Notes: generated from the letters alone by a model not told the origin. DNA of 64,000 nucleotides from a virus (IMGVR_UViG_3300007754_000852); one strand, 5' to 3'. Positions 46,261 to 64,000 are shown, numbered from the stretch's first letter. Numbers and translations are program-made.

Positions 46261-46548
46261 CTACTTCTCTACTGACCGATCTATAACTGTCATGTTTCTT
46301 GCAACGTTTAAAATAGAGTCTCTGCATAAATCAATATCCGTAATTACCTGTCTTATCTCAACAGAATCAAAAAAAATCGGCTTCTCTGCCACTTTACTCA
46401 TAGTCTTATATCTTTCATCAAGCTCATCAAGAGAAGATTCAATTGCATCTTGTAATTCTAAAAGAATCATTCCATGCTTATAGTTGTAGCCAATAGAGAT
46501 GACTAATAAAAATAGAAGACATACATTAGTAACTATTAAATAGATCAC
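46261..46548 (-). CDS. Small membrane-anchored protein
   Basis: N-terminal hydrophobic helix MIYLIVTNVCLLFLLVISIGY followed by a coiled coil. Confidence 0.6.
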   Translation of the reverse strand: MIYLIVTNVCLLFLLVISIGYNYKHGMILLELQDAIESSLDELDERYKTMSKVAEKPIFFDSVEIRQVITDIDLCRDSILNVARNMTVIDRSVEK

Positions 46549-47723
46549 ACAGTCTCCACGTGATCATGATAAAATTTATTATACTTTCCAATAACAGCCA
46601 AAAGTGAAAATTCTGATTGTATTTGTTTTGATAGGTCTATTGCCCACTGTTTTGGTAAGCTGTACTTGTCTCTTAGCTTCTTTATCTTCTTTTTGAAGTC
46701 ACCTTCTGAAGGATCTGCCCACTTCATTCCAGCCATAAAGATTCTATTATCAATTCTATTTTTTGGAATTTCAATAAGATCGTATTTTATTGGAATAAAC
46801 TTTCCCATACCAAGAAAGTCAAGATGTCCAGACCAGTTTGTTGCGATAACCGGTAGACCTGCTGCTGCCGCCTCTAGAAGAGGGAGGCCAAATCCCTCTC
46901 CCCTTGTCAGACTAATTAGCCCTTTTACATCTGCTCTTTTATACAGGCCGGCTATCTCGTCTGGTGATAAATTTCCGTGAATCACATGAATTCGTGGAAA
47001 CCTATCTTTTCTAACCTCTGATAACAGCTTTTTAATTGTATTTTTTGTTAGCTGTCTGTCTATCGCTGTTCCTCTTCCATGATTAACTTTTATTATTAGC
47101 CCTACATCAGGATCATCTTTGAATGTCTCACAGAACCACTTGATCGTGAAGAATATATTTTTTCTATCATTCCACGGATCGTCACCAGTAAATTGACCAA
47201 TTAATAAAAAATTAAAACTAGTATCAACGCTATCTAGCTTAGTTTCTTTAATGCTGTCATCATCAATTGATTCAATGTAGCTTTCAGGAATTACATGAAT
47301 TGGTGTCGAAACAGATCCTGTATTTTCAATTGTCTTCTTTATGTGGCTTGTTGGAATAATTACATGATCCATTAGCTCCATTCTTTCAAGCCATGCCTTG
47401 TTACAGACATCAGTTTCAACAACTGCTGACACCCCTATGTTTATCTTGGCCTTTGAAGGATCCCACTCATCTGGTAGCTGTACTTGAACTGAGATATCAT
47501 ATTTTTCACCATCTACTTCGGCATTTGTCCTTTTCATTATTCTTTCTACTAGGCCGTTTTCAAAGTCTGGATTTATCATCCAGCTTGTATTTCCCCACTG
47601 AAGAACTTGAACAGTTACATCAAAGTCGTCTCTAGACTCTAGCCATTTAAATATTTGTCTTGAGTGAACGCCGTATCCGCTTATTGATAAAACAGGCGCC
47701 CGTAAAAGTACTTTCTTTTTCAA
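46545..47723 (-). CDS. Glycosyltransferase, GT4/GT-B family
   Basis: SGYGVHSR, TRGEGFGLPLLEAAAAGLPVIATNWSG. Confidence 0.9.
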   Translation of the reverse strand: MKKKVLLRAPVLSISGYGVHSRQIFKWLESRDDFDVTVQVLQWGNTSWMINPDFENGLVERIMKRTNAEVDGEKYDISVQVQLPDEWDPSKAKINIGVSAVVETDVCNKAWLERMELMDHVIIPTSHIKKTIENTGSVSTPIHVIPESYIESIDDDSIKETKLDSVDTSFNFLLIGQFTGDDPWNDRKNIFFTIKWFCETFKDDPDVGLIIKVNHGRGTAIDRQLTKNTIKKLLSEVRKDRFPRIHVIHGNLSPDEIAGLYKRADVKGLISLTRGEGFGLPLLEAAAAGLPVIATNWSGHLDFLGMGKFIPIKYDLIEIPKNRIDNRIFMAGMKWADPSEGDFKKKIKKLRDKYSLPKQWAIDLSKQIQSEFSLLAVIGKYNKFYHDHVETV

Positions 47724-47738
47724 CTTAAAAACCTCTAG

Positions 47739-61695: not shown

Positions 61696-61697
61696 TT

Positions 61698-63323
61698 TTA
61701 AATTTTGGACACTAAGATTCCATGATCACCAAAGTATAAGTTATCGATATTTGTCCTAAGAAAGCAGTCAATTGCATGATCAGGCGTTTCACAGATAGGT
61801 TCTCTATCATTAAAGCTAGTGTTCAGTAAAATTGGAACACCTGTCTTCTCCTTCCACTTTTTCAGAAAGGAAAAATACCACTGATTGTCGTTTTCTGTTA
61901 CAGTTTGTAATCTCGCTGTTCCGTCTAAGTGTAGAACAGCCGGAACTTTTTCTTTTACATCGTCTTTAAACTTTAAGACAAAGCTCATATACGGACTATC
62001 AACATCTTCAGTAAACCATTCTCCTACATCATCTCTCAATATTGACGGTGCAAATGGTCGATACCATTGTCTATGCTTAACCTTTTCGTTAATCATTTCC
62101 TTCATGCTTTCACCTCTTGGATCAGCAAGAATGCTTCTATTTCCAAGGGCTCGTCTACCAGACTCAGATCCACCATTAAAAACTGACACTATTTTTTGTG
62201 AATCTAATAGGTCGATTACACTTTCATCGTCTGATTCTGAAAATGATACTTTGTCACCTAGCCTGCTTAATGATGTTAATATTTCATCTTTTGAATATGT
62301 CTTTCCAAGGTATGGTGAAAAGCTATCATTCCATTTTATTCTTTCATTTCCAAGAACAACGTGCCAGATAAACTGTGTGGCACCTATTGTCAAACCGCCA
62401 TCATGCGGTGTTGGTGTAACATAAACACCTTCGAGCTCTGGAAACCATGACCTTATCTTTCCGACCATTACTGAATTTAAACTAACACCTCCTGCAAGAC
62501 AAAGGTTTCTTGTACTAATTCTACTGAGAAGCATTCCAAGGAGGGCCTTAAAGACCTTTTCTGTAGCTGATTGAAGACCTGCTGCTAGATCAAACATATC
62601 TTGCTCAGACTGATCAGCAATCTTTACCCATTTATCAAGATACGGATGGATAGGATCATGCCCTGGAACAAGCGCACCTTTTGGCTGATTTGCTGGTTTA
62701 TGAGACGCGCTTGCTATATCAGCTGTTAACATTTTTTCAAAATCACTTTCAAACCTTGTCGGATCTCCTAAAGCTGCCATCGCCATAACAGATCCTGCCT
62801 GATGCCCTCTTGGCCATCCTGACTGTAATTTAAAGATATATCTTGTGGCACGAGTCCATAGACCGCCTATATTTACCTGTGACATGGGAAATGAAAATGC
62901 ATGTTCAAGATTATTTCCATTTCCAAGCCATACTGTAAGAGCTGTCTGGACTCCATTCTCTTCAACACCGCCGCCATCAGCAGTTACAACAAGAGCTTCA
63001 TCAAAATTACTAGAAAAGAAAGCGTTAGCTGCATGGGCCTTGTGATGACCAACAACATAGACATTTCCCTTATTTTTCTTTAGGACATTGAGAAATCTCT
63101 TATATGATTCATCATAATCTGTAACTTTATTTGACGGAGAGCAAGTTACAAGATGCTTGATGTCCTCATAGTCTGAGTAGTTTTCCATTAAGAAGGAAAG
63201 AGAATCACCTGGAGGCTCTTTCTCACGTATAAATCTTTCATATTCATCATGAATAACAGGACGCCCATCATCCATTACAAAGTATGAACAATCATGTCCT
63301 GACCAAACACCAGCAATTTTCAT
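61698..63323 (-). CDS. Carbamoyltransferase (NodU/CmcH/TobZ family)
   Basis: [82 protein letters not shown]. Confidence 0.93.
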
Positions 63324-64000
63324 AAGTTTCTCCCTGAAAGTCTTTTTATATCACTTTCAACCATCTTTTTTACAAGACTGTCAAACGTTGTTGTGGGTTC
63401 CCATTTTAAAACTGTCTTAGCTTTTGAATAGTCACCTATTAAGACATCTACCTCTGCAGGTCTCATAAACCTTTCATCTTGTTTGACATATTTTTCCCAA
63501 TCATTAATTCCAGCATGATAAAATGCTTTTTCTAAAAACTCTTTTACTGAATGACACTCACCAGTTGCTATCACATAATCATCTGGTTCATCTTGCTGGA
63601 GCATTAGCCACATTGCCTCAACGTAATCGACTGCATACCCCCAGTCTCTTTTTGCATCAAGGTTTCCAAGAACAATATCATCAGATAAGCCTAAAAAGAT
63701 TTTTGCCACTCCATCAGTTATCTTTCTTGTAACAAACTGAATCCCTCTTCTTTCTGACTCATGGTTGAAGCAAATTCCTGAGCAATTGAACATTCCATAT
63801 GACTCTCTGTAGTTTTTTGTGATCCAGTGCCCATATAGCTTTGACACACCGTACGGACTTCTTGGATAAAATGGAGTTTTCTCATTTGCAGGACATTCCA
63901 CAGCCTTTCCGAACATTTCAGATGTGCTGGCCTGATAAAACCTTATGTTCTTTCCGCTTTCACGAATTGACTCTAACACTCGCAATACTCCTACACCTGT
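63320..64000 (-). CDS. gmd: GDP-mannose 4,6-dehydratase (copy 2), 5' end outside the window
   Basis: Open to the window edge ([11 protein letters not shown]...). [26 protein letters not shown]. Confidence 0.94.
63567..63628. repeat. 62-bp perfect direct repeat, copy in gmd-2
   Basis: Identical to 57320-57381; extends to 71 bp with one mismatch. Confidence 0.95.

Follow-up and report, generated by a model that had tools for sequence, protein, structure and literature searches.

A thirty-two-gene glycan island joined to the baseplate genes of a marine jumbo phage: a candidate system for virion glycosylation

The subject of this work is an island of glycan-metabolism genes in a 64,000-nucleotide (nt) stretch of viral DNA, IMGVR_UViG_3300007754_000852, referred to here as the window. 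From the sequence alone it had been predicted that this island, lying beside the virion genes, might be a virion glycosylation system. All sizeable open reading frames (ORFs) of the window lie on the minus strand. Profile searches of the translated ORFs with Pfam and NCBIfam, on which the gene calls rest, bore out the predicted run of about 20 contiguous, co-oriented glycan genes, as 20 consecutive genes of this kind fill positions 46545-64000 (Table 1). In the direction of transcription they begin with a second Gmd paralogue, cut by the window edge, and continue with a NodU-type carbamoyltransferase, a family 4 glycosyltransferase (GT4), a DUF2334 protein, a ColD-type protein, an Fcl/ColC-like protein, the first Gmd paralogue, two methyltransferase-like proteins, proteins of 310 and 245 amino acids (aa), a CMP-sugar synthetase, a Gfo/Idh/MocA oxidoreductase, a short-chain dehydrogenase/reductase (SDR), NeuB, a HAD phosphatase, a protein resembling UDP-sugar 6-dehydrogenase (UGD-like), a PD-(D/E)XK nuclease and two further GT4 enzymes.

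Exact-protein look-ups found the same phage in marine metagenomes of JGI and ENA, and one such locus (L008) overlaps the window end at 100% identity and places the start of the island 11.4 kb beyond it. The full island measures 28.9 kb and holds 32 genes. Those beyond the window encode two family 2 glycosyltransferases (GT2) of 642 and 239 aa, a GNAT acetyltransferase, an RmlC equivalog, an SDR, a 72-aa DUF2061 ORF, a PseC-like aminotransferase, a 265-aa protein, a B12-binding radical-SAM (S-adenosylmethionine) enzyme, and one more GT2 and two more GT4 enzymes. The gene list first drawn up was essentially right, but the nuclease, the HAD phosphatase, the Gfo/SDR pair and the 11.4-kb continuation had been left out of it. 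The genes are closely packed, with a widest gap of 58 nt and overlaps at 19 of 38 junctions, and the last GT4 gene and the first gene downstream overlap by 4 nt; by this packing and overlap the island is operon-like with the baseplate genes. The overlap places the start of a 95-aa protein within the stop of the last GT4 gene, so that the two are translationally coupled, and this protein is found at the same position in all relatives. A scan for promoters and terminators gave no signals above those of shuffled sequence. Upstream of the island are PhoH and two large proteins; just upstream of it two assemblies of this phage that are otherwise identical, L007 (5445-7297) and L008 (5717-7297), differ, one having a 526-aa ORF and the other a 343-aa ORF and two small ORFs on the opposite strand.

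The G+C content of the island is slightly lower (36.1% vs 39.6%), as might be seen if a host fragment had been misjoined to phage DNA during assembly. Such an artefact is exceedingly improbable, as a 15.3-kb contig covers 43001-50000 with zero differences and even depth, another contig, from a second study, runs across 46265-46683, the junction is kept in about 35 independent IMG/VR contigs as well as in ENA and JGI assemblies, and the genes that meet there overlap. The phage origin of the island, without a chimera at ~46.5 kb, was thus upheld. The collinearity with a baseplate block held as well, since a gp6-like wedge protein (PHROG 219) is encoded downstream, with the T4-like portal and TerL further on; additional phage features of the window are a weak gp25-like match and a ConA-like lectin domain in a 1208-aa protein. 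Most structural ORFs had no match in PHROGs, and megablast of window positions 40-64 kb found no match among cultured phages. The T4-like portal gene (4216-9180, minus strand) owes its length of 1654 aa to intein-splicing segments, with three matched stretches, and HNH endonuclease domains. At 11479-14616 on the same strand an SbcD/Mre11-type phosphoesterase and an SbcC/Rad50-type ATPase are joined in a single ORF of 1045 aa.

In IMG/VR 222 relatives of the wedge protein were found, and the order nuclease-GT4-GT4-s95-s247-s119-s445-s160-wedge is kept in all of the about 35 related loci that have enough upstream flank. The co-occurrence of the island with structural genes in related phages was thereby confirmed for its core, the nuclease and the GT4 pair upstream of the baseplate genes. 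Across these loci the 415-aa GT4 is 61-70% identical, vs 49-60% for the wedge protein, and the content upstream of the nuclease varies by relative (UGD-like, Gmd, Fcl-like or other epimerases). The order of the island is retained, with additions, in two closer relatives; in one of them the addition is a second NeuB/CMP-synthetase/SDR set. In the other (73% identity) the addition lies between the UGD-like gene and the nuclease (L013, 15142-17124) and consists of an endonuclease-like gene (weak DUF7487 and faint Phage_endo_I matches), a 98-aa ORF and an extra epimerase. Orthologues of the nuclease and of both GT4 enzymes, at 25-38% identity, were found in Flavobacterium phage immuto and Microcystis phage Mel-JY01, where the nuclease likewise adjoins the GT4 pair, and the GT4 pair is also present in Rhodothermus phage RM378; in immuto the trio is followed by a 10-kb set of other glycan genes. 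Six records of the phage database have wedge homologues, and all six have a GT4 homologue too. The lineage is one of large marine myoviruses with a T4-like portal and a gp6-like baseplate, kin to immuto, Mel-JY01 and RM378, and by this distribution the GT4 pair has long belonged to its core, with sugar genes accreting around it.

If the island acts on the virion, acceptor proteins may be sought among the products of the neighbouring genes. The tripeptide [S/T]GS shows a 5-6-fold excess in proteins of the tail/baseplate region that flank the island. Six proteins of the window are rich in it (49 motifs together vs 8.4 expected from shuffles, z 4.8-7.6), and a 1080-aa protein encoded just upstream of the island has 19 vs 6.5 expected; the seven are located at window 16248-40917 (minus strand) and L008:2471-5713. 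An unbiased scan of all tripeptides placed TGS and SGS at the top in these seven proteins (68 vs 15 expected), with no enrichment of either in nine other large proteins, and [S/T]GS was at or under expectation in the wedge, the portal, the terminase, three other large Ser-rich proteins and all island enzymes. The enrichment holds for the orthologues at 11 related loci, with z up to 15.8. In immuto it is seen in tail fibre, spike and sheath proteins and in one protein of the structural region, and in Mel-JY01 in eight proteins encoded a short way downstream of the wedge gene; RM378 shows it more weakly, and the baseplate and fibre proteins of T4 show none (7 vs 10.6 expected).

Table 1. Features of the island and of the adjoining structural genes. 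Positions are those of the window; all features are on the minus strand.
Feature	Position	Length (aa)	Match or basis
Two [S/T]GS-rich proteins	16248..20385	948, 423	15 motifs vs 2.3 expected, z 7.2 and 5.6
Four [S/T]GS-rich proteins downstream of wedge gene, candidate glycan acceptors	31430..40917	511, 1208, 325, 1107	34 motifs vs about 6 expected, z 4.8-7.6
gp6-like baseplate wedge protein	40923..42779	618	PHROG 219 E 1.9e-18
Protein with one N-terminal transmembrane helix	46261..46548	95	Hydropathy scan and translation
Second core GT4	46545..47723	392	Glycos_transf_1 E 4e-13
Core GT4, most conserved island gene	47739..48986	415	Glycos_transf_1 E 9e-13
PD-(D/E)XK nuclease	49030..49866	278	PF12705 E 1.4e-19
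UDP-sugar 6-dehydrogenase-like (UGD-like)	49889..50755	288	PF03721 and PF00984 only
Small HAD-type phosphatase	50758..51051	about 97	Weak EcbF-BcbF and BT0820 HAD model matches
NeuB-family nonulosonate synthase	51048..51896	278-282	PF03102 E 1.3e-60
Gfo/Idh/MocA oxidoreductase and SDR	51890..53406	280 and 228	PF01408 E 7e-10; adh_short_C2 E 1.6e-25
CMP-nonulosonate synthetase, NeuA/PseF-like	53408..54121	237	CTP_transf_3 E 2.6e-18
GT42/DUF115-like CMP-nonulosonate transferase	54121..54858	245	Family profile vs Cst-I/Cst-II
Protein of either GT-B-like or hydrolase/epimerase-like type (lead only)	54851..55774	307-310	No Pfam, NCBIfam or PDB sequence match
Two SAM-methyltransferase-like genes	55771..57077	210-223; 225-228	Second: Methyltransf_23 E 5e-20
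Gmd paralogue 1 (GDP-mannose 4,6-dehydratase)	57064..58050	328	TIGR01472 445.6 bits, above the 415 cut-off
Fcl/ColC-like epimerase-reductase	58047..58952	301	GDP-L-fucose synthase model E 1e-52, 179 bits
ColD-type pyridoxamine phosphate (PMP)-dependent GDP-4-keto-6-deoxymannose 3-dehydratase	58949..60097	382	Best PDB match 2GMS E 1e-54
DUF2334 polysaccharide-deacetylase-like protein	60098..60808	236	PF10096 E 1.8e-8
GT4-type glycosyltransferase	60793..61695	300	Glyco_trans_1_4 and Glycos_transf_1, weak
NodU/CmcH-type O-carbamoyltransferase	61698..63323	541	Carbam_trans_C E 4e-61; Carbam_trans_N E 1e-22
Gmd paralogue 2, 3' part (full gene L008:18493-19467)	63320..64000	324 (full gene)	PF16363 E 1e-92

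The building-block branches of the island comprise GDP-mannose to a 3,6-dideoxy- or 6-deoxyhexose of the colitose type, an RmlC/SDR 6-deoxyhexose, an amino sugar made by aminotransferase and N-acetyltransferase, and a nonulosonic acid (NeuB, HAD phosphatase and CMP-synthetase). Both of the predicted gmd genes were confirmed, as their products, which are 50% identical, score above the TIGR01472 equivalog cut-off (paralogue 2 at full length with 418.4 bits vs 415). The assignment of colD also stood, its closest PDB entry being ColD, with a His aligned to the catalytic His188 of ColD where aminotransferases have their Schiff-base Lys; His in place of this Lys is diagnostic of the 3-dehydratase. 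In the alignment GHH lies against the SHH that holds His188, the entry of the H188N mutant fixing which His is concerned, and the best NCBIfam match of this DegT-family protein is RfbH. The fcl/colC assignment holds at the family level, but the score is far under the 500-bit cut-off of the curated model, and the reductase could be ColC, Fcl or Rmd. The predicted ugd gene has the N-terminal and central domains but is missing the C-terminal UDP-binding domain, TIGR03026 being matched at positions 66-295 of 413; this short form is kept in relatives at 282-344 aa. A recent mobile insertion of the nuclease that truncated UGD was ruled out, as the short UGD and the nuclease are both conserved in relatives. 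Within the two gmd genes there is a 62-nt tract that is perfectly shared (57320-57381 = 63567-63628) and sits in a 161-nt stretch at 84% identity, the rest being ~55% identical at the DNA level. These repeats flank a 6.25-kb carbamoyltransferase-GT4-deacetylase-ColD-Fcl cassette, a pattern that suggests gene conversion or a site of cassette loss and gain.

The nonulosonate genes were identified at the level of their families. The product taken for NeuB has the aldolase domain but gave no match to the SAF domain of canonical NeuB, the alignment covering the model no further than position 278 of 329; scores for the equivalog models of NeuB and PseI were under their cut-offs, and relatives also encode forms of 249-282 aa. 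The gene read as neuA does encode a CTP_transf_3 protein, the nearest model of which is PseF (E 1e-32, under cut-off). The HAD phosphatase matched its models at E 1e-4 to 1e-3, and the 97-aa gene is found at the same place in relatives. The cupin encoded upstream was considered as an FdtA-type isomerase and rejected, as it is an RmlC equivalog. In the open-access literature no paper describing a phage-encoded nonulosonate pathway was found. Among the island genes no pyrophosphorylase making GDP-mannose, dTDP-glucose or UDP-sugars was identified, so these precursors must be supplied by the host, and to call the island self-contained was an overstatement. The tailoring set includes the carbamoyltransferase, two methyltransferases, the B12-radical-SAM enzyme and the deacetylase-like protein. 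The carbamoyltransferase proved to be NodU-type, as expected (NodU model E 8e-41, under cut-off). The second of the two methyltransferases is supported, whereas the first gave weak methyltransferase matches only, and the deacetylase has its DUF2334 match but is a weak assignment.

In total the island encodes 9-10 soluble glycosyltransferases, one GT42-like nonulosonate transferase among them. The three GT4 genes expected in the window were recovered with Pfam. Both core GT4 enzymes retain the EX7E motif in their AlphaFold models, and in the 415-aa enzyme, the AlphaFold2 model of which has a predicted local distance difference test score (pLDDT) of 84.6 and a generic GT-B fold near MshA and BshA, the motif is invariant. 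The 392-aa enzyme (pLDDT 90.9) has as its best PDB match the putative glycosyltransferase 3OY2 of chlorovirus NY-2A, with SdgB and GtfA lower. A PDB sequence search with the 642-aa GT2 returned nothing useful. The 245-aa protein had been described as GT42/Maf-like, of which the first part held. A family profile built from the protein and 12 homologues matched Cst-I (2P2V, E 7e-5) and Cst-II (about 3e-4) in an alignment that brings together the motifs GGGPS and SGFD, and PF01973/DUF115 was matched by 12 of the 13 family members (best E 1.3e-8; the window's own protein E 1.4e-3). Maf flagellin glycosyltransferases are proteins of about 400-650 aa with extra N- and C-terminal substrate-binding domains, and a Maf-type protein glycosyltransferase, which would have been a direct pointer to a protein acceptor, was ruled out here, since the protein consists of a CstII-sized core without these domains; its Atlas structure gave template modelling (TM) scores of 0.62-0.65 to MptE/Maf-like clusters and, by target, just 0.37-0.43 to Maf clusters. 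The acceptor to which this enzyme adds the nonulosonate is probably a sugar and not a protein. The 307-310-aa protein, originally called GT-B, has language-model similarity in favour of this but no family or PDB sequence match; its Atlas features, as a lead only, resemble Glyphos_transf, Epimerase_2 and A-2_8-polyST clusters, and it may be either GT-B-like (TagF/polysialyltransferase type) or NDP-sugar hydrolase/2-epimerase-like.

No Pfam family of flippase (Wzx), polymerase (Wzy), priming phosphoglycosyl transferase, ligase, ABC transporter or oligosaccharyltransferase was found in the 32 island products, nor did hydropathy reveal multi-pass membrane proteins among them, the profiles showing at most a marginal hydrophobic segment; the sole membrane candidates are the 72-aa DUF2061 ORF and the 95-aa boundary ORF. 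As export and lipid-carrier machinery is absent, the island looks built for a soluble acceptor in the cytoplasm, or for the inner face of a host carrier. The latter would amount to remodelling of the host envelope, in which the phage enzymes would build or alter a glycan on a host lipid carrier, at its cytoplasmic face, and the priming, flipping and ligation functions of the host would display it, so that superinfection is blocked or the surface changed. In favour of this, O-antigen and capsule loci typically have GT4 and GT2 enzymes and these same sugar pathways, and WaaG, PglA and PimB-type transferases of lipid-linked glycans are among the best structural matches. There are also two small membrane proteins within or next to the island, and the lipopolysaccharide (LPS)-type gene clusters of marine cyanomyoviruses have been read in this way. 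Nonetheless we regard envelope remodelling as rather unlikely, since none of the flippase, polymerase, priming transferase, ligase and transporter functions is among the 32 genes and the island is fused to the late structural operon and not to early genes. Furthermore, the core pair occurs in phages of three host phyla (Flavobacterium, Microcystis, Rhodothermus) with very different envelopes, a poor fit to a carrier-specific acceptor, and the motif enrichment would not be explained.

With moderate confidence, we propose as the most likely function of the island the cytoplasmic O-glycosylation of tail, baseplate and fibre proteins of the virion, in which the priming pair would be conserved and the sugar cassette variable. 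A virion target is favoured because export and lipid-carrier machinery is absent, the packing with the baseplate genes is operon-like and [S/T]GS-rich tail proteins are found throughout the lineage; in the window and in about 35 relatives, moreover, the phage-encoded transferases are genetically linked to virion genes. In this respect the gene content, phage origin and baseplate collinearity on which the original prediction had relied all stood, but the Maf-type enzyme and the self-containment did not. Late in infection the core GT4 enzymes would start an O-linked glycan on Ser or Thr of exposed tail, baseplate and fibre proteins, with the over-represented [S/T]GS as candidate attachment site. 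The remaining transferases would extend the glycan and then cap it with deoxy sugars and nonulosonate, the tailoring enzymes would decorate it, and GDP-mannose, UDP-sugars and phosphoenolpyruvate (PEP) would be drawn from the host; the likely gain would be shielding or adhesion of the receptor-binding apparatus. A bolder and more tentative version is that of a sequon-directed machine, wholly cytoplasmic and carried by a deep lineage of large phages, in which the GT4 pair would prime [S/T]GS on tail-fibre, baseplate and sheath proteins while the swappable cassette and nonulosonate cap would give the virion its "serotype".

Several observations weigh against glycosylation of the virion. In aligned orthologues of the 1208-aa protein (39-55% identity) roughly every second [S/T]GS site holds its position and the rest turn over, and the motif could equally be a structural turn. 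Its link to the glycosyltransferases comes from a single phylogenetic contrast, this lineage vs T4, and is suggestive, and the virion glycoprotein is a prediction from gene content and motif enrichment. The conserved nuclease is left unexplained, and the additional domains with which Maf enzymes bind their protein substrates are missing from the GT42-like enzyme. The neighbours of the GT4 pair in immuto, Mel-JY01 and RM378 are a nuclease and genes of replication and nucleotide metabolism, not structural genes. Fold searches with both core GT4 enzymes gave generic GT4 results from which the acceptor is not readable, and the models are generic GT-B folds nearest to small-molecule and polymer transferases.

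The last point bears on another soluble acceptor, which might be a non-virion protein of phage or host (in defence, motility or a surface appendage) or a small-molecule glycoside. All the enzymes are soluble, and the folds nearest to that of the 415-aa GT4 belong to enzymes acting on small molecules (MshA, BshA, GlgM and sucrose-phosphate synthase). We consider such an acceptor improbable, as 9-10 transferases and at least four sugar branches imply an oligosaccharide and not a simple glycoside, and the flanking structural proteins are the only candidate acceptors linked to the island across relatives.

The nuclease and the replication-gene setting were also weighed with regard to DNA hypermodification, in which the transferases would sugar a modified base, for example 5-hydroxymethylcytosine (5hmC), and the linked PD-(D/E)XK nuclease would cut unmodified DNA. 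Phage glycosyltransferase clusters that put mono- to trisaccharides on 5hmC have been described, some of them near structural genes (10.1101/2023.12.21.572611). In keeping with this proposal, linkage of the nuclease and the GT4 pair is seen in about 35 relatives, immuto and Mel-JY01, the pair lies among replication genes in distant relatives, the 392-aa GT4 scores above the cut-off of PF20706 "GT4-conflict", and a 254-kb relative has a MilA-like cytidylate 5-hydroxymethylase (best PDB match MilA, E 6e-43, with Asp at the specificity position). Even so, a DNA target seems very unlikely to us. It was weakened above all by the published nucleoside data on immuto, whose DNA was analysed by liquid chromatography with ultraviolet detection and tandem mass spectrometry (LC-UV-MS/MS) and for which only dA, dC, dT and fdPreQ1 (a deazaguanine) were reported (10.1101/2023.04.13.536721); no sugar nucleoside is found in these data, despite the orthologous trio and the 10-kb glycan cluster. 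A thymidylate-synthase-family gene is absent from Mel-JY01 and RM378, and in the relative the hydroxymethylase belongs to a separate, compact cluster beside DnaE that has sugar genes of its own. By Pfam, the island gene set holds no enzyme that would make an acceptor base, be it a hydroxymethylase or a methyltransferase together with TET, and we know of no precedent for a DNA glycan that needs about 10 transferases.

The dnaE-linked cluster of this relative (G001, IMGVR_UViG_3300007770_001284; L101 6404-15026) encodes, after DnaE, the MilA-like hydroxymethylase, a UDP-galactopyranose mutase, a 350-aa protein, a P-loop protein and a GalE-like epimerase, and an MT-A70 methyltransferase is encoded near it. 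The language-model features of the 350-aa protein are like those of T4 beta-glucosyltransferase, which is a lead only; a PDB sequence search with it gave nothing useful and tblastn found no match in cultured phages. The cluster is a candidate for modification of DNA with galactofuranosyl-hydroxymethylcytosine.

Among known systems, mycobacteriophages are known to glycosylate their virions (Freeman et al. 2023, as cited in PMC12619734). Like the island, these systems have soluble phage-encoded transferases near structural genes and a proposed cytoplasmic decoration of the virion; they use a few transferases and host nucleotide sugars, with glycans on the C-terminal tails of capsid and tail-tube subunits. 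The island differs in its 32 genes, its own deoxyhexose, amino-sugar and nonulosonate pathways and its tailoring, and in its candidate acceptors, baseplate and fibre proteins in which a short motif occurs internally. The glycans of chlorovirus capsids and mimivirus fibrils are made by virus-encoded Gmd/Fcl-type enzymes, aminotransferases, acetyltransferases, methyltransferases and soluble glycosyltransferases without endoplasmic reticulum (ER) or periplasmic machinery of the host. The same enzyme classes are present in the island, and among PDB entries the 392-aa GT4 matched a chlorovirus protein best; however, giant viruses infect eukaryotes and belong to another realm than this tailed phage, and the likeness to 3OY2 is at the fold level only (14% identity).

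Flagellin islands (Maf/FlmG; pseudaminic or legionaminic acid) also have nonulosonate synthesis (NeuB/PseI-, PseF-, PseC- and PseH-like), a DUF115/GT42-like transferase and tailoring, and with them the proposed system would share cytoplasmic O-glycosylation of a self-assembling extracellular structure without a lipid carrier. Unlike them, its 245-aa transferase is without the Maf terminal domains, it has many more transferases as well as deoxyhexose branches, and its acceptor would not be flagellin. The DNA-hypermodification clusters of phages resemble the island in having GT-B and GT-A enzymes related to those of LPS and teichoic acid, sometimes near structural genes, but they hold enzymes that make 5hmC, lacking from the island, and add one to three sugars (10.1101/2023.12.21.572611). 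The "Moraphage" lineage of aquatic jumbo phages, with predicted Bacteroidota hosts and a position near a Rhodothermus phage in trees, has four glycosyltransferase orthogroups in its core genome, the role of which was left open (PMC12619734). It is possibly the same lineage as that of the phage studied here; the island architecture, the nonulosonate module and the motif are not part of that paper (PMC12619734).

Virion glycosylation as such is thus already known from mycobacteriophages and giant viruses, and what is added here is the architecture of the island, a candidate sequon, the linkage throughout the lineage and the argument against a DNA target. If the virion is indeed the target, this would be by far the largest phage glycosylation system known, and the first to encode nonulosonic-acid and dideoxyhexose pathways of its own. 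With a short candidate sequon and a relative in culture, immuto, the question is open to direct test, and the soluble enzymes of the island could serve as tools for cytoplasmic glyco-engineering. Complex virion glycans would then not be limited to giant eukaryotic viruses and mycobacteriophages, but would form part of the core of abundant marine jumbo phages, as a trait that diversifies among them. A glycan coat on the receptor-binding proteins would affect host range, the stickiness of particles in seawater and recognition by host defences, and a virion "serotype" particular to each phage would be a viral analogue of O-antigen diversity, displayed on the receptor-binding apparatus.

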